Shown: piece by piece, positions 5,877 through 57,684 of the stretch
How positions within the stretch are numbered: the stretch's first letter is position 1
How the letters are laid out: each line of letters begins with the position of its first letter
Origin: Escherichia coli
Lineage (GTDB): Bacteria; Pseudomonadota; Gammaproteobacteria; Enterobacterales; Enterobacteriaceae
DNA length: 64,000 nucleotides
Direction: 5' to 3' (one strand)
NCBI RefSeq assembly: GCF_001677475.2
Contig: NZ_CP015229.1
The notes under the pieces: generated by a model
The model's database searches: none
The model's input: only the letters and a program-made list of their open reading frames with translations
Told to the model about the DNA's origin: nothing
Program-made: the position numbers and the translations under genes

Positions 5877-6379
5877 GGGCGCGCCTCCCATTGATTACGG
5901 CGGAAAGCAGTGTGAGTCAGGCTGGTTTCGGCCTCATGGAATGCTTCAATGCAGCTCTCGTAGTACCGCATTGTGCGCAGACTTAACCCAAGCTGAAGCA
6001 TCATCAGACCATCAAGAGTTATGTAATAACCACGCAAAGAATCGCCATAAAGGTGATAAGTGCCGGGTATGAAATTACGGGTGAAAAACTCGCGCGAGCA
6101 GTTCAGATACTCGATTTTGTCGACGATATTCTGGTGCATGCGCTTGAAGTGGCAGGCAACATGCAGAGAGAAAATAACGGCCTTGCCGTTGACGGTCTCA
6201 ATTTTGAGGAATGGGTGAGTAGTGGTGGTAGTCATGGTGACAGCCCCGGTAGTCAGTTTGTTAGAAAACTCACCACCAAGGCTTTCCACGACCTTATAGG
6301 TGGTGAGACGTACAGGGGTGGAAATACCGGAGACTACCGAACCCGGCCCGACCGAAGTCGGCCCTGTACGCCCCACCAT
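5873..6379 (-). CDS. Hypothetical protein (start uncertain; C-terminal part of a long open frame)
   Basis: Frame is open from 7174 to 5873 but its upstream part overlaps the well-supported FinO-like gene; only the portion downstream of that gene is called. The stop overlaps the next ATG (ATGA); no convincing RBS was found at ATG 6379 or GTG 6472. Confidence 0.3.
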   Translation of the reverse strand: MVGRTGPTSVGPGSVVSGISTPVRLTTYKVVESLGGEFSNKLTTGAVTMTTTTTHPFLKIETVNGKAVIFSLHVACHFKRMHQNIVDKIEYLNCSREFFTRNFIPGTYHLYGDSLRGYYITLDGLMMLQLGLSLRTMRYYESCIEAFHEAETSLTHTAFRRNQWEARP

Positions 6380-6533
6380 AATTTGGGCGTAGCAATGCTC
6401 ATGACACGAAAAAACCGCATGAGCGCGGTTATGCTCAGTAATCAATTTCGGGTTTCCACGCCCGGCATCCACTTTACAAGATGCCTGAATAGTGTAACGT
6501 CCCGAAATTAAGGAATCAATGTTTTGATAAAAT

Positions 6534-35632: not shown

Positions 35633-36299
35633 AATAAAGAAAACCTTTTAACGCCAAAACAAAAAAGTATTTCGTCGCGTAGTGTAAGCGATCACTTATT
35701 ATATTTCCACAAAATTTAATCTATTTACAGTCCTGCGCGAGATTATTTCAGCTGTTATTTTCTGAAACTCTCAGAATAATTTCAAGATTATATATTAGCC
35801 ATTTTGATGAGTAATTTAGGTTATTGGTGAACAGAGCGGCGCTCTCTGCTCGCTAATTCCGCAAGCCTGACAACACCAAAGTGAATAAAAATGCAATATA
35901 ACAGAATAAAAGAAAACATCCATCACTGGTGCTTTCTGCTGTTAATGTACATTGTCTGGCATAAAAAATGCTGAAAATGACCCGGTCACGACATACACCG
36001 AATTCTCTACGCTTATAGCGTTACCTCACCCCCAAACTTTCATTAGTGAAATTAAAGGCAAGCTAATATCTAATTGATTTAATTGAAAATAAATCATATC
36101 GGCATGTAAAAATCCACAATGTACAAAAAACGCGCCGTTACGGAATATTTTATCTACAAAAACTGACTAAATAAAAATTTTTCACTAATTGATTAGTCAT
36201 AGCCAGCGATATACGCTATGCGAAAATGCAGATGGCAATGAGATCCACTGCTTTCATCTCCATTAACATCCCATTACGCTTTTATTAAGGAGCATTAGC

Positions 36300-36749
36300 A
36301 TGTTCTCACCGCAGTCACGCTTGCGTCATGCAGTTGCAGATACGTTCGCGATGGTTGTTTACTGTTCTGTCGTGAACATGTGTATTGAAGTTTTCCTCTC
36401 CGGAATGAGCTTCGAACAGTCTTTTTATTCCAGATTGGTAGCGATTCCGGTGAACATCTTAATTGCATGGCCATACGGTATGTACCGCGATCTGTTTATG
36501 CGCGCGGCACGCAAAGTTAGCCCGTCGGGCTGGATAAAAAATCTGGCGGATATCCTGGCTTATGTGACGTTCCAGTCACCGGTGTATGTGGCGATCTTGT
36601 TAGTGGTGGGCGCAGACTGGCATCAGATTATGGCGGCGGTCAGTTCAAACATCGTTGTTTCGATGTTGATGGGGGCGGTTTATGGCTACTTCCTCGATTA
36701 TTGCCGCCGACTGTTTAAAGTCAGCCGTTACCAGCAGGTAAAAGCCTGA
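36300..36749 (+). CDS. alaE: L-alanine exporter
   Basis: 149-aa membrane protein; synteny (formerly ygaW). Confidence 0.8.
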
Positions 36750-36785
36750 CTCTTCTTTTCGCGACTGGCATCGCCAGTCGCGTCT

Positions 36786-37130
36786 TTAACTGGCTTCGCC
36801 AAATAAACCATTTAAATAACGTTCAAGCGCAACACGCGAACTAAAGCCATGCGGGATACCGTAATGCTCGTGTCGCTCGCCTGCTAAATAGAGCGGAAAT
36901 TGTTGATAATGATCGCAAGTTTTAATATCGGAAGCGGGTTCAGCCAGTGTCGAACTACGTTCTTTTAATGTTGGATGAATTACCAGTGCGGTACGTCCCA
37001 TTCGCGCTTCGCGATTAACATAGACATAATTTTCCCCACGGCGGTAACCATACGCTTTCTGGGTTACCACATCGACAGTAAAACCGACTTTTTCAAGTAC
37101 GCGCGCCACCTCGTCTGGTCGTAAATACAT
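36786..37130 (-). CDS. ygaC: Uncharacterised protein YgaC
   Basis: 114 aa; synteny. Confidence 0.75.
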
Positions 37131-37281
37131 ATTTGATCCTCGTTATTATCAACCGCGGGCCTACCTTACCTGATTGCGCATTCACAACGCTTTCAGAAAA
37201 GTCCATAAAGCCGCGATGAACCTCAGTTAAGAAAATTATGGTCTACACTGAAAATTACATCGAATTCTAATGGGGGATCAT

Positions 37282-37611
37282 ATGTTTAACCGACCGAACC
37301 GCAACGACGTTGATGATGGCGTGCAGGATATCCAGAATGATGTCAATCAATTAGCTGACAGCCTCGAATCTGTATTGAAGTCCTGGGGCAGCGACGCCAA
37401 AGGGGAAGCTGAAGCCGCACGCAGTAAAGCTCAGGCATTGCTGAAAGAAACCAGGGCGCGAATGCATGGTCGTACTCGCGTCCAGCAAGCCGCACGCGAT
37501 GCCGTTGGCTGCGCGGATTCTTTTGTTCGTGAAAGACCCTGGTGTAGCGTGGGTACAGCAGCTGCGGTAGGTATTTTTATCGGCGCACTGTTAAGCATGC
37601 GCAAATCGTAG
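37282..37611 (+). CDS. ygaM: Ribosome-associated membrane protein YgaM (ElaB family)
   Basis: Start MFNRPNRNDV; C-terminal transmembrane anchor GTAAAVGIFIGALLSM. Confidence 0.75.
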   Translation: MFNRPNRNDVDDGVQDIQNDVNQLADSLESVLKSWGSDAKGEAEAARSKAQALLKETRARMHGRTRVQQAARDAVGCADSFVRERPWCSVGTAAAVGIFIGALLSMRKS

Positions 37612-37858
37612 TGCAAAAATGATAATAAATACGCGTCTTTGACCCCGAAGCCTGTCTTCGGGGTTTCTTTTTGCCTGGTGAATCACAAAAATCCCCCTAC
37701 CCCGTCACGCTCATATCCAGGGTAATTTCGACCACTATTTGCTATATATTGTGTGGTTGAATCTTTTTTCAACTACATCTAGTATCTCTGTATCAACAGA
37801 GAGACAACCCGACGCGTATCATCGCGCCGTATCTTCATTTTAAACGGAAATACGAATC

Positions 37859-38104
37859 ATGCGCATTACTATTTACACTCGTAACGATTGCGTTCAGTGC
37901 CACGCCACCAAACGGGCGATGGAAAACCGGGGCTTTGATTTTGAAATGATTAATGTCGATCGCGTTCCAGAAGCGGCAGAAGCGCTGCGTGCTCAGGGCT
38001 TTCGTCAGTTGCCGGTAGTGATTGCTGGCGATCTTAGCTGGTCTGGTTTCCGTCCGGACATGATTAACCGTCTGCATCCAGCGCCACACGCGGCCAGTGC
38101 ATGA
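37859..38104 (+). CDS. nrdH: Glutaredoxin-like protein NrdH
   Basis: 81 aa, [18 protein letters not shown] (CxxC); nrdHIEF operon. Confidence 0.9.
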
Positions 38105-38511
38105 GCCAGCTCGTCTACTTCTCCAGCAGCTCCGAAAACACGCAGCGTTTTATCGAACGTTTAGGTCTGCCCGCGGTGCGCATCCCGCTCAATGAGCGGG
38201 AACGGATTCAGGTAGACGGGCCTTACATCCTGATCGTGCCCTCTTACGGCGGCGGCGGTACGGCTGGCGCGGTGCCACGACAGGTAATCCGCTTTTTAAA
38301 CGACGAGCACAACCGGGCGTTGCTTCGCGGCGTTATTGCTTCGGGTAATCGCAACTTTGGTGAGGCGTATGGCCGCGCCGGAGATGTGATTGCTCAGAAA
38401 TGCGGCGTGCCGTGGCTGTACCGCTTTGAACTCATGGGTACGCAAAGCGATATCGAAAACGTTCGTAAAGGAGTAACTGAATTTTGGCAACGACAACCGC
38501 AGAATGCCTGA
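38101..38511 (+). CDS. nrdI: Flavodoxin-like protein NrdI
   Basis: 136 aa; overlaps the nrdH stop. Confidence 0.9.
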
Positions 38512-40628
38512 CGCAGGAAACGATGGATTACCACGCGCTGAATGCGATGCTTAACCTCTACGACAGCGCAGGTCGCATTCAGTTCGATAAAGACCGCCAG
38601 GCCGTTGACGCCTTTATTGCGACGCATGTGCGTCCGAACAGTGTGACCTTCGGTAGCCAGCAGCAGCGCCTGAACTGGCTGGTCAACGAAGGTTACTATG
38701 ATGAAAGCGTTCTTAATCGCTACTCTCGCGACTTTGTCATTACGCTGTTTGCCCACGCACACACCAGCGGTTTTCGTTTTCAGACATTCCTCGGAGCATG
38801 GAAGTTTTACACCAGCTATACGTTGAAGACATTCGACGGTAAGCGTTATCTGGAAGATTTTGCCGATCGAGTCACGATGGTGGCGCTGACGCTGGCACAA
38901 GGCGATGAAACACTGGCGACGCAACTGACCGATGAGATGCTGTCAGGACGCTTTCAGCCTGCAACACCGACATTCCTCAACTGTGGTAAGCAGCAGCGCG
39001 GCGAACTGGTTTCCTGTTTTTTGCTGCGTATTGAAGACAATATGGAGTCGATTGGTCGGGCGGTAAATTCCGCACTGCAACTGTCGAAACGCGGCGGCGG
39101 CGTAGCATTTTTGCTGTCGAATCTGCGGGAAGCGGGCGCGCCAATTAAACGTATTGAAAATCAATCTTCTGGCGTAATTCCGGTGATGAAAATGCTGGAA
39201 GACGCATTTTCCTATGCCAACCAACTCGGCGCGCGTCAGGGGGCTGGTGCAGTCTATTTACATGCTCATCATCCCGATATTCTGCGTTTTCTCGACACGA
39301 AACGGGAAAATGCCGACGAAAAAATCCGCATTAAAACACTGTCGCTTGGCGTGGTGATCCCGGATATCACTTTCCATCTGGCAAAAGAGAATGCGCAGAT
39401 GGCGCTGTTTTCGCCTTATGACGTAGAGCGAGTTTATGGCAAGCCGTTTGCCGATGTCGCCATTAGCGAACACTATGACGAACTGGTTGCCGATGAACGC
39501 ATCCGCAAAAAATACCTCAACGCCCGTGATTTCTTCCAGCGACTGGCAGAAATCCAGTTTGAGTCCGGCTATCCCTACATCATGTATGAAGACACGGTAA
39601 ACCGTGCTAACCCTATCGCCGGGCGCATAAATATGAGCAATCTTTGCTCAGAGATTTTGCAGGTTAACAGCGCATCAGAGTATAACGAGAATCTCGACTA
39701 TGCCCGCACAGGCCATGATATTTCCTGCAATTTAGGTTCGTTGAATATTGCGCACACCATGGATTCCCCGGACTTTGCCCGCACGGTAGAGACTGCCGTA
39801 CGCGGTTTAACGGCGGTGTCAGATATGAGTCATATCCGCAGCGTGCCGTCCATCGAAGCCGGAAATGCCGCCTCACACGCCATCGGGCTGGGGCAGATGA
39901 ATTTACACGGTTATCTGGCGCGAGAAGGCATCGCTTATGGTTCGCCGGAAGCACTGGATTTCACCAATCTCTATTTCTATACCATCACCTGGCACGCACT
40001 GCGTACCTCAATGTTGCTGGCACGCGAACGCGGTGAAACCTTCGCCGGGTTCAAACAGTCACGCTATGCCAGTGGTGAATATTTTAGCCAATATCTGCAA
40101 GGGAACTGGCAGCCGAAAACGGCGAAAGTTGGCGAACTGTTTACCCGTAGCGGTATTACGTTACCTACCCGTGAGATGTGGGCGCAGCTGCGCGACGACG
40201 TGATGTGCTACGGCATTTACAACCAGAATCTTCAGGCGGTGCCGCCAACCGGTTCTATCTCTTATATCAACCATGCTACGTCGAGTATTCATCCGATTGT
40301 GGCGAAAGTAGAGATACGCAAAGAGGGCAAAACAGGACGCGTTTACTACCCTGCCCCGTTTATGACTAACGAGAATCTGGCGCTGTATCAGGATGCTTAC
40401 GCAATCGGCGCAGAAAAGATCATCGACACCTACGCGGAAGCGACTCGCCATGTCGATCAGGGTTTGTCGCTGACGCTGTTTTTCCCCGATACCGCCACCA
40501 CTCGCGATATCAACAAAGCGCAGATTTACGCCTGGCGCAAGGGTATCAAAACGCTCTATTACATTCGCCTGCGTCAGATGGCGCTGGAAGGCACTGAAAT
40601 TGAAGGCTGCGTCTCCTGTGCACTTTAA
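38484..40628 (+). CDS. nrdE: Class Ib ribonucleotide reductase alpha subunit
   Basis: 714 aa; C-terminal CxxC (CVSCAL). Confidence 0.9.
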
Positions 40629-41597
<969 letters not shown>

Positions 41598-41952
41598 GGG
41601 TGTTATTTTCAAAAATATCACTACCCGCGACAGGGAAATAATTCCCGCCAAATAGCTTTTTATCACGCAAATATTTTGTGGCGATCTACACTGATACTCT
41701 GTTGCATTATTCGCCTGAAACCACAATATTCAGGCGTTTTTTCGCTATCTTTGACAAAAAATATCAACTTTTCTCGATTTGCTCTCAGCCCTTATATCAC
41801 GGGAAATTCCGGCGATTTGCTCGCATCAATATTCATGCCACATTTGCCATCAGGGGTTGCCTCAGATTCTCAGTATGTTAGGGTAGAAAAAAGTGACTAT
41901 TTCCATTGGGTAATATATCGACATAAACAAATAACAGGAATCTTTCTATTGC

Positions 41953-43155
41953 ATGGCAATTAAATTAGAAATTAAAAATCTTTATAAAATATTTGGTGAG
42001 CATCCACAGCGAGCGTTCAAATATATCGAACAAGGACTTTCAAAAGAACAAATTCTGGAAAAAACTGGGCTATCGCTTGGCGTAAAAGACGCCAGTCTGG
42101 CCATTGAAGAAGGCGAGATATTTGTCATCATGGGATTATCCGGCTCGGGTAAATCCACAATGGTACGCCTTCTCAATCGCCTGATTGAACCCACCCGCGG
42201 GCAAGTGCTGATTGATGGTGTGGATATTGCCAAAATATCCGACGCCGAACTCCGTGAGGTGCGCAGAAAAAAGATTGCGATGGTCTTCCAGTCCTTTGCC
42301 TTAATGCCGCATATGACCGTGCTGGACAATACTGCGTTTGGTATGGAATTGGCCGGAATTAATGCCGAAGAACGCCGGGAAAAAGCCATTGATGCACTGC
42401 GTCAGGTCGGGCTGGAAAATTATGCCCACAGCTACCCGGATGAACTCTCTGGCGGGATGCGTCAACGTGTGGGATTAGCCCGCGCGTTAGCGATTAATCC
42501 GGATATATTATTAATGGACGAAGCCTTCTCGGCGCTCGATCCATTAATTCGTACAGAGATGCAGGATGAGCTGGTAAAATTACAGGCGAAACATCAGCGC
42601 ACCATTGTCTTTATTTCCCACGATCTCGATGAAGCTATGCGTATTGGCGACCGAATTGCCATTATGCAAAATGGTGAAGTGGTGCAGGTTGGTACACCGG
42701 ATGAAATTCTTAATAATCCGGCGAATGATTATGTCCGTACCTTCTTCCGTGGCGTCGATATTAGCCAGGTGTTCAGTGCGAAAGATATTGCCCGTCGTAC
42801 ACCGAACGGCTTAATTCGTAAAACCCCCGGCTTCGGCCCGCGTTCGGCACTGAAATTATTGCAGGATGAAGATCGCGAATATGGCTACGTCATCGAACGC
42901 GGTAATAAGTTTGTCGGCGCTGTGTCTATCGATTCGCTTAAAGCCGCGTTAACGCAGCAGCAAGGTCTTGATGCGGCGCTGATTGATGCGCCGTTAGCGG
43001 TCGATGCACAAACGCCTCTTAGCGAGTTGCTCTCTCATGTCGGACAGGCACCCTGTGCGGTGCCCGTGGTCGACGAGGACCAACAGTATGTCGGCATCAT
43101 TTCGAAAGGAATGCTGCTGCGCGCTTTAGATCGTGAGGGGGTAAATAATGGCTGA
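41953..43155 (+). CDS. proV: Glycine betaine/proline ABC transporter ATPase
   Basis: 400 aa; Walker [10 protein letters not shown], signature LSGGMRQR, C-terminal CBS domains. Confidence 0.9.
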
Positions 43156-44212
43156 TCAAAATAATCCGTGGGATACCACGCCAGCGGCGGACAGTGCTGC
43201 ACAATCCGCAGACGCCTGGGGTACACCGACGACTGCACCGACTGACGGCGGTGGTGCTGACTGGCTGACCAGTACGCCTGCGCCAAACGTCGAGCATTTT
43301 AATATTCTCGATCCGTTCCATAAAACGCTGATCCCGCTCGACAGTTGGGTCACTGAAGGGATCGACTGGGTCGTTACCCATTTCCGTCCCGTCTTCCAGG
43401 GCGTGCGCGTTCCGGTTGATTATATCCTCAACGGTTTCCAGCAATTGCTGCTGGGTATGCCAGCGCCAGTGGCGATTATCGTTTTTGCTCTCATCGCCTG
43501 GCAGATTTCCGGGGTCGGAATGGGCGTGGCGACGCTGGTTTCGCTGATTGCCATCGGCGCAATCGGTGCCTGGTCGCAGGCAATGGTGACTCTGGCGCTG
43601 GTGTTAACCGCCCTGCTGTTCTGTATCGTCATCGGTTTGCCGTTGGGGATATGGCTGGCGAGAAGTCCGCGAGCGGCGAAAATTATTCGTCCACTGCTTG
43701 ATGCCATGCAGACCACGCCAGCGTTTGTTTATCTGGTGCCAATCGTCATGCTATTTGGTATCGGTAACGTGCCGGGCGTGGTGGTGACGATCATCTTTGC
43801 TCTGCCGCCGATTATCCGTCTGACCATTCTGGGGATTAACCAGGTTCCGGCGGATCTGATTGAAGCCTCGCGCTCATTCGGTGCCAGCCCGCGCCAGATG
43901 CTGTTCAAAGTTCAGTTACCGCTGGCGATGCCGACCATTATGGCGGGCGTTAACCAGACGCTGATGCTGGCCCTTTCTATGGTGGTCATTGCCTCGATGA
44001 TTGCCGTCGGCGGGCTGGGTCAGATGGTACTTCGCGGTATCGGTCGTCTGGATATGGGGCTTGCCACCGTTGGCGGCGTCGGGATTGTGATCCTCGCCAT
44101 TATCCTCGATCGCCTGACGCAGGCCGTTGGGCGCGACTCACGCAGTCGCGGCAACCGTCGCTGGTACACCACTGGCCCTGTTGGTCTGCTGACCCGCCCA
44201 TTCATTAAGTAA
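43148..44212 (+). CDS. proW: Glycine betaine/proline ABC transporter permease
   Basis: 354-aa polytopic membrane protein; overlaps the proV stop. Confidence 0.9.
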
Positions 44213-44269
44213 CTCTGCACTTGCCCGGTGACGCCGGGCATTATCACCCTGCCAAAAAAAGGAATAACA

Positions 44270-45262
44270 ATGCGACATAGCGTACTTTTTGCGACAGCGT
44301 TTGCCACGCTTATCTCTACACAAACTTTTGCTGCCGATCTGCCGGGCAAAGGCATTACTGTTAATCCAGTTCAGAGCACCATCACTGAAGAAACCTTCCA
44401 GACGCTGCTGGTCAGTCGTGCGCTGGAGAAATTAGGTTATACCGTCAATAAACCCAGTGAAGTGGATTACAACGTTGGCTACACCTCGCTTGCTTCCGGC
44501 GATGCAACCTTCACCGCCGTGAACTGGACGCCACTCCATGACAACATGTACGAAGCTGCCGGTGGCGATAAGAAATTTTATCGTGAAGGGGTATTTGTTA
44601 ACGGCGCGGCACAGGGTTACCTGATCGATAAGAAAACCGCCGACCAATACAAAATCACCAACATCGCACAACTTAAAGATCCGAAGATCGCCAAACTGTT
44701 CGATACCAACGGCGACGGTAAAGCGGATTTAACCGGCTGTAACCCAGGCTGGGGCTGCGAAGGTGCGATCAACCACCAGCTTGCCGCGTATGAACTGACC
44801 AACACCGTGACGCATAATCAGGGGAACTACGCAGCGATGATGGCCGACACCATCAGTCGCTACAAAGAGGGCAAACCGGTGTTTTATTACACCTGGACGC
44901 CGTACTGGGTGAGTAATGAGCTGAAGCCAGGGAAAGATGTGGTCTGGTTGCAGGTGCCGTTCTCCGCACTGCCGGGCGATAAAAACGCCGATACCAAACT
45001 GCCGAATGGTGCGAATTATGGCTTCCCGGTCAGCACCATGCATATCGTTGCCAACAAAGCCTGGGCCGAGAAAAACCCGGCAGCAGCGAAACTGTTTGCC
45101 ATTATGCAGTTGCCAGTGGCAGATATTAACGCCCAGAACGCCATTATGCATGACGGCAAAGCCTCAGAAGGCGATATTCAGGGCCATGTTGATGGTTGGA
45201 TCAAAGCCCACCAGCAGCAGTTCGATGGCTGGGTGAATGAGGCGCTGGCAGCGCAGAAGTAA
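44270..45262 (+). CDS. proX: Glycine betaine/proline periplasmic binding protein
   Basis: Start [26 protein letters not shown] (signal peptide); 330 aa. Confidence 0.85.
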
Positions 45263-45269
45263 TTTTTAT

Positions 45270-45360
45270 TCGGGCGGATAAGGCGTTTTTGCCTCATCCG
45301 CCGTTCTGTGCACAATGCCTGATGCGACGCTGGCGCGTCTTATCATGCCTACAAACCACA
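45270..45360. repeat. REP/BIME elements
   Basis: CGGGCGGATAAGGCG...CATCCGCC and GCCTGATGCGACGCTGGCGCGTCTTATCATGCCTAC, classic REP palindromes. Confidence 0.55.
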
Positions 45361-45453
45361 TCGCACATTTCAACAATCTATCTTTCATCCCATATTCATC
45401 AACATCCGCTATTATTGATTTCCAGCTTAATCATCACCTGATGAACAAAAATA

Positions 45454-46638
45454 ATGACTAAACCTAATCATGAGCTTAGCCCGGCGCTGATCGTGCTGAT
45501 GTCTATCGCCACCGGTCTGGCGGTAGCCAGTAACTATTACGCCCAGCCGTTGCTCGACACCATCGCGCGTAACTTTTCCCTTTCCGCCAGTTCGGCAGGC
45601 TTTATTGTTACCGCCGCGCAGTTGGGCTATGCCGCAGGTCTACTGTTTCTTGTTCCCCTCGGTGATATGTTTGAACGCCGCCGCCTGATTGTCTCGATGA
45701 CCTTACTGGCAGCGGGCGGTATGTTAATCACTGCCAGCAGTCAGTCACTGGCGATGATGATCCTCGGTACGGCATTAACCGGTTTATTCTCAGTCGTGGC
45801 ACAAATTCTGGTTCCGCTGGCAGCGACGCTGGCTTCACCGGACAAACGCGGCAAAGTGGTCGGCACCATTATGAGCGGGCTGCTGTTGGGGATCTTGCTG
45901 GCACGAACCGTTGCCGGGTTGCTGGCAAACCTCGGCGGCTGGCGCACCGTCTTTTGGGTTGCCTCGGTGTTAATGGCACTGATGGCGCTGGCATTATGGC
46001 GTGGTCTGCCACAAATGAAATCAGAAACCCACCTCAACTACCCACAGTTGCTTGGTTCCGTTTTCAGCATGTTTATCAGCGATAAGATCCTGCGCACCCG
46101 CGCGTTGCTGGGCTGCCTGACCTTTGCCAACTTCAGCATTCTCTGGACCTCAATGGCCTTTTTGCTTGCCGCTCCACCTTTTAACTACAGCGATGGTGTA
46201 ATTGGTCTGTTTGGACTTGCGGGAGCTGCCGGAGCGTTGGGCGCTCGTCCGGCGGGCGGTTTTGCCGACAAGGGCAAATCGCACCACACAACAACTTTCG
46301 GTCTGCTGCTGCTGTTACTTTCATGGCTGGCAATCTGGTTTGGTCACACTTCCGTACTGGCGCTGATTATCGGCATTCTGGTGCTGGACCTCACCGTGCA
46401 GGGCGTGCATATCACTAACCAGACGGTAATTTATCGAATACACCCTGATGCGCGTAATCGCCTGACCGCAGGTTACATGACCAGCTACTTTATTGGCGGT
46501 GCCGCCGGTTCGCTAATTTCAGCCTCAGCCTGGCAACATGGCGGTTGGGCTGGCGTTTGTCTGGCTGGCGCGACGATTGCCCTGGTTAACTTACTGGTCT
46601 GGTGGCGAGGTTTTCATCGTCAGGAAGCCGCAAATTAA
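45454..46638 (+). CDS. ygaY: MFS transporter, intact
   Basis: 394-aa 12-TM-like ORF without interruption; I recall ygaY as a pseudogene in K-12. Confidence 0.7.
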   Translation: MTKPNHELSPALIVLMSIATGLAVASNYYAQPLLDTIARNFSLSASSAGFIVTAAQLGYAAGLLFLVPLGDMFERRRLIVSMTLLAAGGMLITASSQSLAMMILGTALTGLFSVVAQILVPLAATLASPDKRGKVVGTIMSGLLLGILLARTVAGLLANLGGWRTVFWVASVLMALMALALWRGLPQMKSETHLNYPQLLGSVFSMFISDKILRTRALLGCLTFANFSILWTSMAFLLAAPPFNYSDGVIGLFGLAGAAGALGARPAGGFADKGKSHHTTTFGLLLLLLSWLAIWFGHTSVLALIIGILVLDLTVQGVHITNQTVIYRIHPDARNRLTAGYMTSYFIGGAAGSLISASAWQHGGWAGVCLAGATIALVNLLVWWRGFHRQEAAN

Positions 46639-46761
46639 GCAATCAGCAACCGTTTTCGTGGCTTTACACTTATAAGGGTGTTAAGAAGCCCATCAGTCTG
46701 ATAAGGTTAAGATATTCATTCAGTCTATTTATAATATTAACAATCGTTAAGCGTACACTCT

Positions 46762-47499
46762 ATGGAAAGCCCTACTCCACAGCCTGCTCCTGGTTCGGCG
46801 ACCTTCATGGAAGGATGCAAAGACAGTTTACCGATTGTTATTAGTTATATTCCGGTGGCCTTTGCGTTCGGTCTGAATGCGACCCGTCTGGGATTCTCTC
46901 CTCTCGAAAGCGTTTTTTTCTCCTGCATCATTTATGCAGGCGCGAGCCAGTTCGTCATTACCGCGATGCTGGCAGCCGGGAGTAGTTTGTGGGTTGCTGC
47001 ACTGACCGTCATGGCAATGGATGTTCGCCATGTGTTGTATGGCCCGTCACTGCGTAGCCGTATTATTCAGCGTCTGCAAAAATCGAAAACCGCCCTGTGG
47101 GCGTTTGGCCTGACGGATGAGGTTTTTGCCGCCGCAACCGCAAAACTGGTACGCAATAATCGCCGCTGGAGCGAGAACTGGATGATCGGCATTGCCTTCA
47201 GTTCATGGTCATCGTGGGTATTTGGTACGGTAATAGGGGCATTCTCCGGCAGCGGCTTGCTGCAAGGTTATCCCGCCGTTGAAGCTGCATTAGGTTTTAT
47301 GCTTCCGGCACTCTTTATGAGTTTCCTGCTCGCCTCTTTCCAGCGCAAACAATCTCTTTGCGTTACCGCAGCGTTAGTTGGTGCCCTTGCAGGCGTAACG
47401 CTATTTTCTATTCCCGTCGCCATTCTGGCAGGCATTGTCTGTGGCTGCCTCACTGCGTTAATCCAGGCATTCTGGCAAGGAGCGCCCGATGAGCTATGA
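46762..47499 (+). CDS. ygaZ: Branched-chain amino acid exporter subunit (AzlC family)
   Basis: 245-aa membrane protein; synteny. Confidence 0.85.
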
Positions 47500-47824
47500 G
47501 GTTCTGCTGCTTGGGTTACTGGTTGGCGCGGCGAATTATTGCTTCCGCTATTTGCCGCTGCGCCTGCGTGTGGGTAATGCCCGCCCAACCAAACGTGGCG
47601 CGGTAGGTATTTTGCTCGACACCATTGGCATCGCCTCGATATGCGCTCTGCTGGTTGTCTCTACCGCACCAGAAGTGATGCACGATACACGCCGTTTCGT
47701 GCCCACGCTGGTCGGCTTCGCGGTACTGGGTGCCAGTTTCTATAAAACACGCAGCATTATCATCCCAACACTGCTTAGTGCGCTGGCCTATGGGCTCGCC
47801 TGGAAAGTGATGGCGATTATATAA
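47489..47824 (+). CDS. ygaH: Branched-chain amino acid exporter subunit (AzlD family)
   Basis: 111 aa; overlaps the ygaZ stop. Confidence 0.85.
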
Positions 47825-47914
47825 CCCACAAGAATCATTTTTCTAAAACAATACATTTACTTTATTTGTCACTGTCGTTACTATATCGGCTGAAATTAAT
47901 GAGGTCATACCCAA

Positions 47915-48445
47915 ATGGATAGTTCGTTTACGCCCATTGAACAAATGCTAAAATTTCGCGCCAGCCGCCACGAAGATTTTCCTTATCAGGAGATCCTTCT
48001 GACTCGTCTTTGCATGCACATGCAAAGCAAGCTGCTGGAGAACCGCAATAAAATGCTGAAGGCTCAGGGGATTAACGAGACGTTGTTTATGGCGTTGATT
48101 ACGCTGGAGTCTCAGGAAAACCACAGTATTCAGCCTTCTGAATTGAGTTGTGCTCTTGGATCATCCCGTACCAACGCGACGCGTATTGCCGATGAACTGG
48201 AAAAACGCGGTTGGATCGAACGTCGTGAAAGCGATAACGATCGCCGCTGCCTGCATCTGCAATTAACGGAAAAAGGTCACGAGTTTTTGCGCGAGGTTTT
48301 ACCACCGCAGCATAACTGCCTGCATCAACTCTGGTCCGCGCTCAGCACAACAGAAAAAGATCAGCTCGAGCAAATCACCCGCAAATTGCTCTCCCGTCTC
48401 GACCAGATGGAACAAGACGGTGTGGTTCTCGAAGCGATGAGCTAA
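47915..48445 (+). CDS. mprA: MarR-family repressor of emrAB
   Basis: 176 aa; synteny upstream of emrAB. Confidence 0.9.
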
Positions 48446-48571
48446 CGCGTCATCTCGCTCAAAAATCCAGATTTATAAAAGAAAAAATGACTGGCCAGCA
48501 TCGCAACATGCTGGCCTTTTTGGCAAGCAGGTCGGCTCAGCCGATGAGTTAAGAAGATCGTGGAGAACAAT

Positions 48572-49744
48572 ATGAGCGCAAATGCGGAGACTCAAACCCC
48601 GCAGCAACCGGTAAAGAAGAGCGGCAAACGTAAGCGTCTGCTCCTCCTTCTCACCTTGCTCTTTATAATTATTGCCGTAGCGATAGGGATTTATTGGTTT
48701 TTGGTACTGCGTCATTTCGAAGAAACCGATGACGCATACGTGGCAGGGAATCAGATTCAAATTATGTCTCAGGTGTCTGGCAGCGTGACGAAAGTCTGGG
48801 CCGATAACACCGATTTTATAAAAGAAGGCGATGTTCTGGTCACTCTCGACCCGACAGATGCTCGCCAGGCGTTTGAAAAAGCCAAAACTGCACTGGCTTC
48901 CAGCGTTCGCCAAACCCACCAGCTGATGATTAACAGCAAACAGTTGCAGGCGAATATTGAGGTGCAAAAAATCGCCCTCGCGAAAGCACAAAGCGACTAC
49001 AACCGCCGAGTGCCGCTGGGCAATGCCAACCTGATTGGTCGCGAAGAGCTGCAACACGCCCGCGACGCCGTCACCAGTGCCCAGGCGCAACTGGACGTCG
49101 CTATTCAACAATACAATGCCAATCAGGCGATGATTCTGGGGACTAAACTGGAAGATCAGCCTGCCGTGCAACAGGCTGCCACCGAAGTACGTAACGCCTG
49201 GCTGGCGCTGGAGCGTACCCGTATTGTCAGTCCGATGACCGGTTATGTTTCCCGTCGTGCCGTGCAACCGGGTGCGCAAATTAGCCCAACGACGCCGCTG
49301 ATGGCGGTCGTTCCAGCCACCAATATGTGGGTGGATGCCAACTTTAAAGAGACGCAGATTGCCAATATGCGCATCGGTCAGCCGGTCACCATCACCACCG
49401 ATATTTACGGCGATGATGTGAAATACACCGGTAAAGTGGTTGGTCTGGATATGGGCACAGGTAGCGCATTCTCACTGCTTCCGGCGCAAAATGCGACCGG
49501 TAACTGGATCAAAGTCGTTCAGCGCCTGCCTGTGCGTATTGAACTGGACCAGAAACAGCTGGAGCAATACCCGCTGCGTATCGGTTTGTCCACGCTGGTG
49601 AGCGTCAATACCACTAACCGTGACGGTCAGGTACTGGCAAATAAAGTACGTTCCACACCGGTCGCGGTAAGTACCGCGCGTGAAATCAGCCTGGCACCTG
49701 TCAATAAACTGATCGACGATATCGTAAAAGCTAACGCTGGCTAA
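48572..49744 (+). CDS. emrA: Multidrug efflux membrane fusion protein
   Basis: Start MSANAETQTPQQPVKKSGKRK; 390 aa. Confidence 0.9.
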   Translation: MSANAETQTPQQPVKKSGKRKRLLLLLTLLFIIIAVAIGIYWFLVLRHFEETDDAYVAGNQIQIMSQVSGSVTKVWADNTDFIKEGDVLVTLDPTDARQAFEKAKTALASSVRQTHQLMINSKQLQANIEVQKIALAKAQSDYNRRVPLGNANLIGREELQHARDAVTSAQAQLDVAIQQYNANQAMILGTKLEDQPAVQQAATEVRNAWLALERTRIVSPMTGYVSRRAVQPGAQISPTTPLMAVVPATNMWVDANFKETQIANMRIGQPVTITTDIYGDDVKYTGKVVGLDMGTGSAFSLLPAQNATGNWIKVVQRLPVRIELDQKQLEQYPLRIGLSTLVSVNTTNRDGQVLANKVRSTPVAVSTAREISLAPVNKLIDDIVKANAG

Positions 49745-49760
49745 TCCAGAGGTGCGTGTG

Positions 49761-51299
49761 ATGCAACAGCAAAAACCGCTGGAAGGCGCGCAACTGGTCA
49801 TTATGACGATTGCGCTGTCACTGGCGACATTCATGCAGGTGCTGGACTCCACCATTGCTAACGTGGCGATCCCCACTATCGCCGGGAATCTGGGCTCATC
49901 GCTCAGCCAGGGAACGTGGGTAATCACTTCTTTCGGGGTGGCGAATGCCATCTCGATCCCGCTTACCGGCTGGCTGGCAAAGCGCGTCGGGGAAGTGAAA
50001 CTGTTCCTCTGGTCAACCATCGCCTTTGCTATTGCGTCGTGGGCGTGTGGTGTCTCCAGCAGCCTGAATATGCTGATCTTCTTCCGCGTGATTCAGGGGA
50101 TTGTCGCCGGGCCGTTGATCCCGCTTTCGCAAAGTCTATTGCTGAATAACTACCCGCCAGCCAAACGCTCGATCGCGCTGGCACTGTGGTCGATGACGGT
50201 GATTGTCGCGCCAATTTGCGGCCCAATCCTCGGCGGGTATATCAGTGACAATTACCACTGGGGCTGGATATTCTTCATCAACGTACCGATTGGCGTGGCG
50301 GTGGTGTTGATGACACTGCAAACCCTGCGCGGACGCGAAACCCGCACCGAACGGCGGCGGATTGATGCCGTGGGGCTGGCACTGCTGGTTATTGGTATCG
50401 GCAGCCTACAGATTATGCTCGACCGCGGTAAAGAGCTGGACTGGTTTTCATCACAGGAAATTATCATCCTTACCGTGGTGGCAGTGGTGGCTATCTGCTT
50501 CCTGATTGTCTGGGAGCTGACCGACGATAACCCGATAGTCGATCTGTCGTTGTTTAAGTCGCGCAACTTCACCATCGGCTGTTTGTGTATCAGCCTCGCG
50601 TATATGCTCTACTTCGGCGCTATTGTTCTGCTGCCGCAGTTGTTGCAGGAGGTCTACGGTTACACGGCAACGTGGGCAGGTCTGGCCTCTGCGCCGGTAG
50701 GAATTATTCCGGTGATCCTGTCGCCGATTATCGGCCGCTTCGCGCATAAACTGGATATGCGGCGGCTGGTAACCTTCAGCTTTATTATGTATGCCGTCTG
50801 CTTCTACTGGCGTGCCTATACCTTTGAACCGGGTATGGATTTTGGCGCGTCGGCCTGGCCGCAGTTTATCCAGGGGTTTGCGGTGGCCTGCTTCTTTATG
50901 CCGCTGACCACCATTACGCTGTCTGGTTTGCCACCGGAACGACTGGCGGCAGCATCGAGCCTCTCCAACTTTACGCGAACGCTGGCGGGGTCTATCGGCA
51001 CGTCCATCACCACCACCATGTGGACCAACCGCGAGTCGATGCACCATGCGCAGTTGACTGAGTCGGTAAACCCGTTCAACCCGAATGCCCAGGCGATGTA
51101 CAGTCAACTGGAAGGGCTTGGGATGACGCAACAGCAGGCATCAGGCTGGATTGCCCAGCAGATCACCAATCAGGGGCTGATTATTTCCGCCAATGAGATC
51201 TTCTGGATGTCAGCCGGGATATTCCTCGTCCTGCTGGGGCTGGTGTGGTTTGCTAAACCGCCATTTGGCGCAGGTGGCGGCGGAGGCGGTGCGCACTAA
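49761..51299 (+). CDS. emrB: Multidrug efflux MFS transporter
   Basis: Start MQQQKPLEGAQLVIMTIALSL; 512 aa. Confidence 0.9.
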   Translation: MQQQKPLEGAQLVIMTIALSLATFMQVLDSTIANVAIPTIAGNLGSSLSQGTWVITSFGVANAISIPLTGWLAKRVGEVKLFLWSTIAFAIASWACGVSSSLNMLIFFRVIQGIVAGPLIPLSQSLLLNNYPPAKRSIALALWSMTVIVAPICGPILGGYISDNYHWGWIFFINVPIGVAVVLMTLQTLRGRETRTERRRIDAVGLALLVIGIGSLQIMLDRGKELDWFSSQEIIILTVVAVVAICFLIVWELTDDNPIVDLSLFKSRNFTIGCLCISLAYMLYFGAIVLLPQLLQEVYGYTATWAGLASAPVGIIPVILSPIIGRFAHKLDMRRLVTFSFIMYAVCFYWRAYTFEPGMDFGASAWPQFIQGFAVACFFMPLTTITLSGLPPERLAAASSLSNFTRTLAGSIGTSITTTMWTNRESMHHAQLTESVNPFNPNAQAMYSQLEGLGMTQQQASGWIAQQITNQGLIISANEIFWMSAGIFLVLLGLVWFAKPPFGAGGGGGGAH

Positions 51300-51307
51300 G
51301 GTTGTCA

Positions 51308-51331
51308 AAGGGAGCTGCGGCTCCCTTTTTA
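51308..51331 (+). terminator. Rho-independent terminator after emrB
   Basis: GGGAGCTGCGGCTCCC hairpin followed by TTTTTA. Confidence 0.6.
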
Positions 51332-51556
51332 TTTGCTCATTCTGCAAACGGTTGTTTTATCCACTCATTCGGTGTATCTTTTCGCCGCCCCAAACTCTTC
51401 CATTCACCATTAACCGGTTCTGAGCATTCGCTCAGGTTGTTAATTCTCTTTTTCTTTCGCCCTCGCTTTCGCGGGTGATACTCACATTTTTCTTTTAACC
51501 CCATAACTCGCACCCTCGCGGGCGTACATTTATTACACACAAAATAATGGATTATT

Positions 51557-52264
51557 ATGAATACCCAACGAAAATACGGGAGAACCTGGCATTACCCTTT
51601 CTCCCCAGGCACCACCAGCGATGACCGTATTAACACCGATTACTGGCAGGATTTACAGGCCATCACGCAATTGGTGCACACAGAAAAACTCGACGGTGAA
51701 AATAACTGCCTTAACCGCTACGGCGTGTTTGCCCGTTCCCATGCCGCGCCTACGCAGTCGGCATGGACCTATAAAATTCGCCAACGCTGGCAACTGCTGA
51801 AAAACGATCTCGGCGATCTGGAGTTGTTTGGTGAAAATCTTTATGCCGTCCATTCGATTGAATATCGCGCCCTGGAGCAGGATTTTTATCTGTTTGCCGT
51901 TCGCTGCCAGGATATGTGGCTGAGCTGGGAAGAGGTGCAGTTTTACGCCGCTCTGTTTGATTTCCCCTGCGTTCCCGAAATCTCCGGCCCGCAGCCGGGG
52001 AATGATGAAAAAAGCTGGCAACGTGATTTTCTGGCGCTGACCAATGCGCGCGGCGCGTTCGATCCCTGGGATACGCAAACCGGGCAACCCTGTACGCTGG
52101 AAGGCATTGTCAGCCGAAATCGTGACGCGTTTTCCGTCGCTGACTTTTCGCATAACGTCTTCAAGTATGTGCGCAAAAATCATGTCAAAACCACCGTGCA
52201 CTGGAAACGACACTGGCAACGGGCGCGGATGGCCCATGAGTTCGCTTATGGAGAACAGTCATGA
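51557..52264 (+). CDS. Minimal RNA/DNA ligase-like nucleotidyltransferase (putative RNA ligase)
   Basis: Covalent nucleotidyltransferase motifs in canonical order: [11 protein letters not shown] (KxDGxN), [35 protein letters not shown]; 235 aa; not present at this junction in K-12 as I recall it. Confidence 0.65.
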
Positions 52265-53373
52265 TTTGGCAGCTTACCGACGACAAACGCTGGTCGACGC
52301 TACGCCAGCGTTTCAGTTGGGTTGAGGAGATGCATCACACGCCACAAGACCCGGAGCATCATGGTGAAGGTGACGTCGGCGTGCATACGGAAATGGTGCT
52401 TAACGCCCTCGTTACTCAGCCAGAATTCCAGCAACTCCCCGCTCAACAGCAGGAAGTTTTATGGGCGGCGGCGTTATTGCATGATGTTGAAAAGCGCAGC
52501 ACTACCGTGCAGGAAAACGGACGTATTCAGTCTCCAGGCCATGCTCGTCGGGGCGAACTGACGGCCCGACAAATTTTATGGCGCGATATCCCAACGCCGT
52601 TCGTGCTACGCGAGCAAATTGTTGCGCTGGTGCGTCTGCATGGGTTACCGCTATGGTTACTGGAACGTCCGGAACCGGAGCGTTTGCTGCTCACGGCTGC
52701 AATGCGCATCGACACGCGTCTGCTCGCTTTGCTTGCTCGTGCCGACCTGCTTGGTCGCCAAAGCCCGGATCAGCAATCAATGCTGGAACGCATCGATCTG
52801 TTCGAGCTGTTTTGCCATGAGCAACAATGCTGGGGAAAAGTGCGCCCGTTCGTTTCTGATTCCGCACGCTGGCACTACCTGACTCATGAGCAAAGTTCTC
52901 CTGATTTTGTTCCCTGGGGGGCTGAACCTTTTGAGGTTATTTTGCTGTGTGGCTTACCGGGTATGGGCAAAGATCGCTATATCAGTGAACAGTGCCAGGG
53001 AATGGACGTTATCAGCCTTGATGATATGCGGCGGCGAATCAATGCCAGCCCGGACGACAAAACCGCCACCGGGCGTATTGTGCAACAGGCAAAAGAAGAG
53101 GCGCGCGTTTTTTTACGCCAGAAAAAGCCGTTCATCTGGAATGCAACGAACATTACCCGCCAGCTGCGTAGCCAGCTCATCAGCTTGTTTACGGCCTACG
53201 GTGCAAGGGTAAAAATTATCTATCTGGAAGTGCCGTGGGCACAATGGAAGCAGCAAAATGCCAGGCGTGTGTATGCAGTTCCTGAAGTGGTCGTAATGCG
53301 GATGGCCTCAAGGCTGGAAGTTCCTCAACCTGATGAAGCACATAGCGTGGAGTATCGGGTGATTGAAAGGTAA
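52261..53373 (+). CDS. HD-domain phosphohydrolase fused to P-loop NTPase/kinase (putative HD-Pnk-type polynucleotide end-healing enzyme)
   Basis: N-terminal HD signature ([14 protein letters not shown] ... LLHDVEKR), C-terminal P-loop [13 protein letters not shown] with downstream [12 protein letters not shown] overlaps the ligase stop (ATGA). Confidence 0.6.
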
Positions 53374-53378
53374 AAAAA

Positions 53379-53411
53379 CCGGGCGGTGCTGTCACCTGCC
53401 CGGCTTCTTTT
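53379..53411. terminator. Bidirectional rho-independent terminator between the HD/P-loop gene and luxS
   Basis: CCGGGCGGTGCTGTCACCTGCCCGG hairpin flanked by an A-run on the left and a T-run on the right. Confidence 0.55.
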
Positions 53412-53421
53412 GTTCCACTGA

Positions 53422-53937
53422 CTAAATGTGCAGTTCTTGCAACTTCTCTTTCGGCAGCGCCAGCTCTTCGTTGCTGTTGATGCGTACGTCACGTTCCAGA
53501 ATGCTACGCGCAATATCCTGCGCTTCCTGCAACGAGTGCATCTGGTAAGTGCCACACTGGTAGACGTTCAGTTCTGGGATCTGATTCTGATCCTGCACTT
53601 TCAGCACGTCTTCCATTGCCGCTTTCCAGGCATCAGCAACACGCTGCTCATCTGGCGTACCAATCAGACTCATATAAAAACCGGTGCGGCAGCCCATTGG
53701 CGAGATATCGATAATCTCTACACCATTACCGTTAAGATGGTTACGCATAAAACCAGCAAACAGGTGCTCCAGGGTATGGATCCCTCTTTCTGGCATCACT
53801 TCTTTGTTCGGCACGCAGAAGCGCAGATCGAACACGGTGATTGCGTCGCCATGCGGGGTGTTCATTGTTTTCGCCACCCGAACTGCAGGCGCTTCCATCC
53901 GGGTATGATCGACTGTGAAGCTATCTAACAACGGCAT
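53422..53937 (-). CDS. luxS: S-ribosylhomocysteine lyase (autoinducer-2 synthase)
   Basis: 171 aa [14 protein letters not shown]...[10 protein letters not shown] (HxxEH metal motif). Confidence 0.9.
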
Positions 53938-54005
53938 TTAGCCACCTCCGGTAATTTTTTTAAAAATTTTCTGAACTCTTTCTTCCCAGGCGAGTCTGAG
54001 TATAT

Positions 54006-54079
54006 GAAAGACGCGCATTTGTTATCATCATCCCTGAATTCAGAGATGAAATTTTGGCCACTCACGAGTGGCCTTTTTC
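54006..54079 (+). ncRNA. micA: MicA (SraD) small regulatory RNA
   Basis: GAAAGACGCGCATTTGTTATCATCATCCCTGAATTCAGAGATGAAATTTTGGCCACTCACGAGTGGCCTTTTT in the luxS-gshA intergenic region, ending in a terminator hairpin plus T-run. Confidence 0.75.
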
Positions 54080-54086
54080 TTTTCTG

Positions 54087-55670
<1,584 letters not shown>

Positions 55671-55715
55671 TTAATTAGCATAACTGTAATGGTGACCATA
55701 TGTGCAGGCCTACAA

Positions 55716-56144
55716 TTAGTGCCACCACATCATGCCCTGAACGGTCGCTGCTGCAACTGCAACATAGCGTAACGCTTTACCAAGGCACAAAAAAAAGATT
55801 ACCGGCCCCCAGGAGATGCGCATCCATCCCGCTAACAGACACAGTAAATCGCCAACTACGGGCATCCAGCTTAATAATAGCGTGACTGCACCATAGCGTT
55901 TCAGCCAGCCAGTAGCTTTCTCTTGCCAGCGCGATGTTTTACGCAATGGAAAGAAACGCCCAAGGATAACGTTAGTTAACCCTCCAAGGCTATTACCCAT
56001 TGTTGCTGTTAAAACTAAAACCCAGGGATGACTGATCCCGGAAAGCAACATTGCCACCAGCACGACTTCGGAGTTGCCGGGTAATAGTGTAGCGCTGAGA
56101 AAACTACTGGCAAACAACGAGAAAAGCGATAACGCTTCACTCAC
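55716..56144 (-). CDS. yqaA: DedA/YqaA-family inner membrane protein
   Basis: 142 aa; synteny. Confidence 0.8.
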   Translation of the reverse strand: MSEALSLFSLFASSFLSATLLPGNSEVVLVAMLLSGISHPWVLVLTATMGNSLGGLTNVILGRFFPLRKTSRWQEKATGWLKRYGAVTLLLSWMPVVGDLLCLLAGWMRISWGPVIFFLCLGKALRYVAVAAATVQGMMWWH

Positions 56145-56917: not shown

Positions 56918-56994
56918 TGGTGCATCCGGGAGGATTCGAACCTCCGACCGCTCGGTTCGTAGCCGAGTACTCTATCCAGCTGAGCTACGGATGC
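56918..56994 (-). tRNA. argQ: tRNA-Arg (anticodon ACG)
   Basis: Reverse complement is GCATCCGTAGCTCAGCTGGATAGAGTACTCGGCTACGAACCGAGCGGTCGGAGGTTCGAATCCTCCCGGATGCACCA; name assigned by position in the array. Confidence 0.85.
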
Positions 56995-57096
56995 ATCGGG
57001 AAAACTTATTTTACTGCTGATATTGATACCGCTACTAAAGCCATATCAAATAAGAAAATCCATCTTAACCATCATCACTGATGATTACGGAGAATA

Positions 57097-57173
57097 TGGT
57101 GCATCCGGGAGGATTCGAACCTCCGACCGCTCGGTTCGTAGCCGAGTACTCTATCCAGCTGAGCTACGGATGC
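57097..57173 (-). tRNA. argZ: tRNA-Arg (anticodon ACG)
   Basis: Identical 77-nt tRNA-Arg sequence; second copy. Confidence 0.85.
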
Positions 57174-57235
57174 ATCGGGAAATTTATTTTACTGCTGATA
57201 TTGATACCGCTACTAAAGCCATATCAAGTAAGAGA

Positions 57236-57312
57236 TGGTGCATCCGGGAGGATTCGAACCTCCGACCGCTCGGTTCGTAGCCGAGTACTCTATCCAGCTG
57301 AGCTACGGATGC
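57236..57312 (-). tRNA. argY: tRNA-Arg (anticodon ACG)
   Basis: Identical 77-nt tRNA-Arg sequence; third copy. Confidence 0.85.
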
Positions 57313-57376
57313 ATCGGGAAACTTACTTTACTGCAGATTTTTTGATACCGCTACTAAAGCCGTATCAAGTAAGAGA

Positions 57377-57395
57377 TGGTGCATCCGGGAGGATT
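57377..57395 (-). other. Truncated tRNA-Arg fragment (3'-terminal ~19 nt only)
   Basis: TGGTGCATCCGGGAGGATT matches the 3' end of the tRNA-Arg copies, then diverges into unrelated sequence. Confidence 0.4.
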
Positions 57396-57511
57396 ACTCG
57401 CCTTGCGGCTCGCCCTTCGGGCCGTTGCTAAAGCAACGTTATCCTTCCTGGTGCTTGCGGCTAGTACCGCCACCTCTTCCACATCTTCATCGCTGAAGAT
57501 TACGGATAATA

Positions 57512-57588
57512 TGGTGCATCCGGGAGGATTCGAACCTCCGACCGCTCGGTTCGTAGCCGAGTACTCTATCCAGCTGAGCTACGGATGC
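57512..57588 (-). tRNA. argV: tRNA-Arg (anticodon ACG)
   Basis: Identical 77-nt tRNA-Arg sequence; fourth copy, 3 nt from serV. Confidence 0.85.
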
Positions 57589-57591
57589 AAA

Positions 57592-57684
57592 TGGCGGTGA
57601 GGCGGGGATTCGAACCCCGGATGCAGCTTTTGACCGCATACTCCCTTAGCAGGGGAGCGCCTTCAGCCTCTCGGCCACCTCACC
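57592..57684 (-). tRNA. serV: tRNA-Ser (anticodon GCU)
   Basis: Reverse complement is GGTGAGGTGGCCGAGAGGCTGAAGGCGCTCCCCTGCTAAGGGAGTATGCGGTCAAAAGCTGCATCCGGGGTTCGAATCCCCGCCTCACCGCCA, with a long variable arm. Confidence 0.85.

Follow-up and report, generated by a model that had tools for sequence, protein, structure and literature searches.

An intact ygaY transporter gene in Escherichia coli at the locus of the frameshifted K-12 pseudogene

The window analysed here, a stretch of 64,000 nucleotides from an Escherichia coli genome (assembly GCF_001677475.2, contig NZ_CP015229.1), features the gene order proV-proW-proX-ORF-ygaZ-ygaH-emrR(mprA)-emrA-emrB, which is the same in K-12. The ORF at 45454-46638 of the plus strand was listed as a single reading frame of 394 codons, extending from ATG to TAA without an internal stop. 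Its translation matches the Pfam model MFS_1 (PF07690) with 142.2 bits at a gathering threshold of 33.4 and the ORF is therefore not a chance one; Sugar_tr and MFS_4 give weaker matches which overlap that of MFS_1. The uninterrupted MFS-type ORF of 394 amino acids described by the sequence-only reading was thus found at its exact coordinates. The same start and end were called 'MFS transporter' by PGAP in other E. coli genomes, and the adjacent genes ygaZ-ygaH are annotated as an AzlC/AzlD-type L-valine exporter. Both the position (proVWX upstream, ygaZH-mprA-emrAB downstream) and the near-identical sequence agree with K-12 b2681, and the ORF is almost certainly the intact orthologue of K-12 ygaY. 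The features of the locus are compiled in Table 1.

Table 1. Features at and around ygaY, in positions of the window unless stated otherwise
Feature	Position	Strand	Basis
proX, upstream neighbour, synteny anchor	44270..45262	+	ORF, annotation; protein identical to K-12 ProX
REP-type repeat in the proX-ygaY spacer, outside the gene	45272..45349	+	Rfam RF02564 naRNA4/CssrE, 69.7 bits vs gathering score 59.5
AT-rich 5' leader, putative ygaY promoter region	45353..45453	+	GC 33.7% vs 55.4% in the ORF
Intact ygaY, 12-helix MFS transporter, 394 aa	45454..46638	+	ORF, Pfam, AlphaFold2, synteny, ~97% nt identity
Gly88Cys repeat site	HS30-1 locus 1537-1553, corresponding to window 45703-45720		Allele comparison
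7 bp absent from K-12, GGCAGCG as aligned	45708..45714	+	Alignment columns 305-311, allele series
ygaZ-ygaH, downstream neighbours, synteny anchor	46762..47824	+	ORFs, annotation, Pfam AzlC/AzlD

The spacer between proX and ygaY is occupied by a REP-type repeat, which includes a 12-nt inverted repeat at 45273-45302, followed by an AT-rich leader. Because of this REP-type repeat, a 1.6-kb query gave a median of 9 matches per E. coli genome; a plasmid was matched, too. Besides, the length of this spacer differs between strains, with matches starting from query base 20 or 109 and insertions of about 100 bp in some of them. Upstream of 45454, the promoter scan gave no consensus sigma-70 promoter, with counts equal to the shuffle expectation, and the segment was read without a clear Shine-Dalgarno sequence; the promoter and terminator scan as a whole gave no convincing ygaY promoter. 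Downstream, ygaY and ygaZ are separated by a gap of 123 bp. The sole sigma-70-like consensus site of the region, TTAAGA-17-TATAAT (10/12), is situated in this gap upstream of ygaZ (46707-46735, plus strand), and here the count likewise equals the shuffle expectation. Its position suggests that ygaZH is transcribed from a separate promoter and not by read-through from ygaY, and co-transcription of ygaY and ygaZ is therefore not implied.

Among 5,426 complete RefSeq E. coli genomes, none is close to the window; the highest identity was 98.3% for 20 kb with core genes (36000-56000) and 98.7% for the ygaY region. A 40-mer taken from ygaY had no match in the set of species-representative genomes. 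Nevertheless, each of the proteins ProW, ProX, YgaY, YgaZ, YgaH and EmrR has the sequence of a common E. coli allele. Positions 1-25000 reached only about 95% identity to complete E. coli genomes at a coverage of at most 81%. The E. coli regions matching this part are annotated with an integrase, a replicative helicase, a primase-helicase, IS3-family transposases and ypjCB, and this part accordingly resembles an integrated mobile element. Within it, Rfam models revealed a C4 antisense RNA (81.9 bits) beside isrK (53.4 bits) at 6296-6484 on the minus strand, as is usual for P4/P1-type or satellite prophage elements, and a tRNA gene was found at 22964-23036 (minus strand). An ORF of 1565 amino acids (15359-20056, minus strand) shares just about 94-95% nucleotide identity with E. 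coli regions annotated as ypjA/EhaD adhesin-like autotransporter or 'AIDA repeat-containing protein'. Further RNA genes are the sRNA MicA (83.9 bits) at 54006-54077 (plus strand) and a cluster of five tRNAs at 56921-57684 (minus strand), one of which is longer than the other four; these four are probably repeated copies of one tRNA, as their scores are identical.

The hydropathy of YgaY reveals 11 clear and one weak hydrophobic segments, and the even-numbered loops are enriched in lysine and arginine in a positive-inside pattern. The predicted topology hence follows the MFS pattern of 6+6 helices with both termini inside, in line with the classification given by the sequence-only reading. An AlphaFold2 model, built on an alignment of 71 diverse relatives, is all-helical (mean pLDDT 95.4, pTM 0.93). 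Hydropathy, this model and the structural match to SotB agree on the characters of the MFS, i.e., 12 TM helices in two six-helix bundles with a cytoplasmic linker and termini inside. A Foldseek search of the PDB returned SotB first (TM-score 0.85-0.90, rmsd 2.4-2.6 A), followed by MdfA and NorA, and a search of the PDB with the sequence profile likewise found SotB over its full length (E = 6.6e-16), followed by EmrD and YajR. Taken together, the structures of SotB (6kki/6kkk/6kkl), MdfA (4zow) and NorA (8tte) feature the fold of YgaY with TM-scores of 0.80-0.90 and rmsd values of 2.4-4.3 A. A cytoplasmic loop resembling motif A, although not in its strict form, can be discerned in both halves of YgaY. 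The identity of these DHA1 antiporters to YgaY is just 15-18%, YgaY is devoid of motif C and the cutoffs of the DHA1 families are widely missed.

In detail, the scores of the DHA1 models against their cutoffs were 63.8/401 for PRK03545 (SotB-like), 50.4/200.9 for Bcr/CflA, 52.5/400 for Cmx/CmrA and 38.1/479 for EmrD. The top NCBIfam match, the aromatic acid/H+ symport subfamily, is confined to the N-terminal half and reaches 78 bits versus a cutoff of 418; no curated NCBIfam model applied at its cutoff to YgaY or to 70 of its relatives. The subfamily around YgaY comprises 1144 clusters at 50% identity (E <= 1e-30). The top homologue match was a protein of 596 amino acids (P0001) from an ENA contig of 5.4 kb, which with 73% identity scored 1092 bits and thereby exceeded the self-match of 834 bits; possibly, ygaY was called here in a fused or partly duplicated form on a contig of metagenomic origin. 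In the TCDB, YgaY (P76628) is listed as 2.A.1.36.3 in the YnfM family with the function 'unknown' (PMC5417439). Full-length similarity to K-12 YnfM was significant, as this family assignment implies, with 26% BLASTP identity over 409 columns (E = 2e-20) and a hhalign probability of 99.7%. Both proteins are homologous over their full length and have 12 TM helices, but YnfM is a distant paralogue and not the orthologue, and YgaY is 23 residues shorter. With regard to motifs, motif A in its strict form (G-x3-D-R/K-x-G-R-R/K) is absent from the TM2-TM3 loop, where a degenerate GDMFERR is located at residue 70, and the equivalent TM8-TM9 loop contains a clearer motif-A-like copy, GGFADKGK, at residue 268. 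The antiporter motif C (G-x8-G-x3-G-P-x2-G-G) was sought in TM5 without a match, and no GP dipeptide occurs anywhere in YgaY. Moreover, Asp312 (TM10) and Arg151 (TM5) lie inside TM segments and are at least 90% conserved in the alignment of relatives. Judged from position and conservation, both may serve as candidate proton or substrate sites.

In the K-12 reference (NC_000913.3), ygaY (b2681) spans 2808316-2809493 (1178 bp) between proX and ygaZ and is annotated as a pseudogene; in another K-12 assembly, it is marked as 'frameshifted' by PGAP. When the window, K-12 and strain Res13 are aligned, a single indel becomes apparent, namely a 7-bp gap in K-12, which could equally be placed a few bases away owing to the GGC/GCGG repeats on its flanks. 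It corresponds to codons 85-88 (L-A-A-G) inside TM3 (residues 78-96). Translated in its native frame, K-12 ygaY yields 88 residues and stops at codon 89, still within TM3, whereas the window reads through to 394 amino acids. The disruption of the K-12 gene, which the sequence-only reading had put forward, is thus borne out by annotation and alignment, and the intact ORF of the window is absent from K-12. The two loci are otherwise alike, sharing about 97% nucleotide identity. With the 7 bp restored, K-12 ygaY (UniProt P76628) differs from the window at 39 of 1185 aligned nucleotides and encodes the same protein apart from Gly88Cys.

The nature of the lesion becomes apparent from further alleles. 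The commensal strain HS30-1, which has an intact ygaY, reads TACTG GCGGCAT GCGGCAT GTTG at this site, and K-12 reads TACTG GCGGCAT GTTG. Insertion of one GCGGCAT into K-12 ygaY makes it identical to that of HS30-1 in 1185 of 1185 nucleotides; the K-12 lesion is therefore the loss of one 7-bp tandem repeat unit, and no other decay has affected the K-12 gene. Three site alleles can be distinguished among intact genes: CTG GCA GCG GGC GGT ATG in the window, Res13 and AR_451; CTG GCG GCA GGC GGC ATG in S42 and the majority of the loci whose protein is identical; and CTG GCG GCA TGC GGC ATG in HS30-1. The latter differs from the S42 type by one G-to-T change, which causes Gly88Cys and at the same time creates the perfect 7-bp tandem repeat GCGGCAT GCGGCAT. 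Citrobacter features a similar GCA GGC GGC ATG at this site and carries GCAGGCGGCATG. As this series shows, the common allele (...GCG GCA GGC GGC ATG...) acquired the G-to-T change and with it the doubled GCGGCAT; replication slippage between the two units would then have produced the 7-bp deletion of K-12. The window very likely carries ygaY in its functional wild-type form, and the pseudogene of K-12 would be a lineage-specific accident.

The distribution of both states was assessed with a 60-mer, in which the 7 nt are preceded by 40 nt and followed by 13 nt and which had to be covered at 80% or more. At the 7-bp site, to which these counts refer irrespective of lesions elsewhere in ygaY, 5052 of the 5406 matching complete E. 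coli genomes (about 93%) are undeleted and 354 are not. When the K-12 junction was used as query, the best 60 full-length matches and four spread rows all appear to be K-12 laboratory derivatives, as judged from strain name, genome size or an MG1655-like coordinate; the restriction of the deletion to K-12 hence refers to a sample of 64 of the approximately 354 carriers and not to a census. Named carriers include MG1655, C600, J53, DH5alpha, DH1, HST04, NCM3722, RR1, HMS174, AG100 and BW25113-type strains, and less familiar ones, e.g., WCHEC035053S1G0 and PS200, were judged to be K-12-like. The junction query matched 1146 genomes at 80% coverage or more. About 792 of these are intact genomes of the HS30-1 type which match the K-12 query to base 49, because the GCGGCATGCGGCAT allele fits the query by chance up to this base. 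The Gly88Cys repeat allele accordingly occurs in approximately 790 of the 5,406 complete E. coli genomes (about 15%), and these are diverse isolates. In addition, the exact YgaY protein of the window was found in 55,857 blocks of an assembly collection. Intact ygaY is thus the rule in E. coli and K-12 the exception. The occurrence of intact YgaY in other E. coli is already known in so far as it is visible in RefSeq annotation, and the K-12 pseudogene is standard annotation.

The fact that HS30-1 equals K-12 plus a tandem copy of GCGGCAT could also be read in the opposite direction, with the K-12 state being ancestral and intact alleles like that of HS30-1 being frame-restoring 7-bp duplications. 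The differences between HS30-1 and the window at nucleotides 258, 261, 262 and 267, all within 10 nt, resemble an indel scar at first and would fit such an origin. However, the S42-type intermediate (GCG GCA GGC GGC) is intact and a single G-to-T change away from HS30-1, and Citrobacter has GCAGGCGGCATG as well, so that no indel cycle is needed. By the same two observations, the HS30-1 allele as the scar of a deletion plus a duplication was ruled out. Furthermore, the deletion was met just in K-12 derivatives among the 64 rows inspected, whereas the repeat allele is spread over about 790 diverse isolates. An ancestral K-12 state is therefore extremely improbable. Likewise, the K-12 'frameshift' might be an artefact of sequencing or assembly, but the same junction appears in about 354 independently assembled complete genomes, including derivatives of MG1655, W3110-type, DH5alpha, DH1, C600, BW25113 and HMS174, by which this explanation is effectively excluded.

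Selection on the intact gene was estimated by the Nei-Gojobori method. Eight E. coli loci encode the exact protein of the window and differ from it by 24-41 nucleotides, all of which are synonymous. Within E. coli, the dN/dS of ygaY amounts to 0.008-0.053, and against the Citrobacter orthologue to 0.041; the corresponding values of its neighbours against Citrobacter are 0.040 for proW, 0.039 for ygaZ, 0.043 for ygaH and 0.043 for emrR. Orthologues of 394 amino acids are present in Shigella (99% identity), E. fergusonii and E. marmotae (98%), E. albertii (96%) and Citrobacter (93%), the latter with the same synteny as E. coli, and throughout Shigella, Escherichia spp. and Citrobacter they are named just 'MFS transporter'. 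These substitution patterns show that purifying selection acts on intact ygaY with the same strength as on the functional genes beside it, and ygaY is very probably a functional gene in wild strains.

Alternatively, ygaY could be intact but silent or dispensable, i.e., a cryptic gene heading to decay which has not yet been struck in this strain. This would agree with the missing consensus promoter and Shine-Dalgarno sequence upstream and with the fact that K-12 lives without ygaY, so that its deletion serves as a neutral control. Moreover, an H-NS signal at ygaY was reported for some K-12 ChIP experiments, and a bridge between the downstream regulatory element of proU and ygaY, mediated by NAPs, was confirmed in K-12. 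In K-12 work, ygaY transcripts have been reported and the gene has been called cryptic; the searched literature mentioning ygaY yielded no experiment on expression or transport by intact YgaY. A decaying gene, however, would not keep 24-41 purely synonymous differences, nor dN/dS ratios equal to those of functional neighbours, nor a Citrobacter counterpart 93% identical at the same place, and silence of the intact gene is accordingly quite unlikely. The direction of transport is less clear-cut. An importer or symporter, e.g., for aromatic acids, sugars or osmoprotectants, would be consistent with the aromatic acid/H+ symport subfamily as the top NCBIfam match (despite its partial coverage and low score), with the missing antiporter motif C and with the adjoining proVWX uptake system, and it is established that the MFS fold does not set direction. 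Still, the full-length neighbours in sequence and structure (SotB, EmrD, MdfA, NorA, Cmx, Bcr/CflA) are efflux proteins, and in the TCDB, YgaY is grouped with the putative efflux systems of the YnfM family. Import is thus a possible but rather doubtful function.

MFS proteins are secondary transporters which operate by alternating access, and their fold alone leaves the transport direction unfixed. YgaY would accordingly be an inner-membrane MFS secondary transporter of 12 helices with cytoplasmic N- and C-termini, alternating in a rocker-switch manner. As it most closely resembles efflux proteins of the YnfM family and the DHA1 type, a proton-coupled exporter rather than an importer appears to be the most probable function, with a chance of about one half. 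The neighbourhood of the exporters ygaZH and emrRAB is suggestive of export by YgaY, and only suggestive. A further-reaching idea would be that YgaY is a relevant exporter missed by K-12 genetics and the Gly88Cys repeat a slippage-prone on/off locus, with K-12 in the 'off' state. This combination is unlikely, and if it were true, the 'off' ygaY of K-12 could revert through re-duplication of GCGGCAT.

All in all, ygaY of the window is intact and ordinary, the orthologue of a gene which is broken in K-12. The loss of one unit from a repeat that Gly88Cys had created, the lack of further decay and the neighbour-like dN/dS add detail to this picture that has the value of a footnote. In K-12, a ygaY deletion has been employed as a pseudogene control, and the locus is used as a chromosomal integration site in metabolic engineering and for marker insertion. 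Since the K-12 lesion is clean, concerns a single unit and was not followed by further decay, a 7-bp insertion could restore the gene for a phenotype search. As in about 93% of complete E. coli genomes, judged at this site, a conserved MFS transporter has been retained in the genome of the window. In wild strains, ygaY is under selection and presumably functional, so that neutrality of this locus should not be assumed outside K-12.
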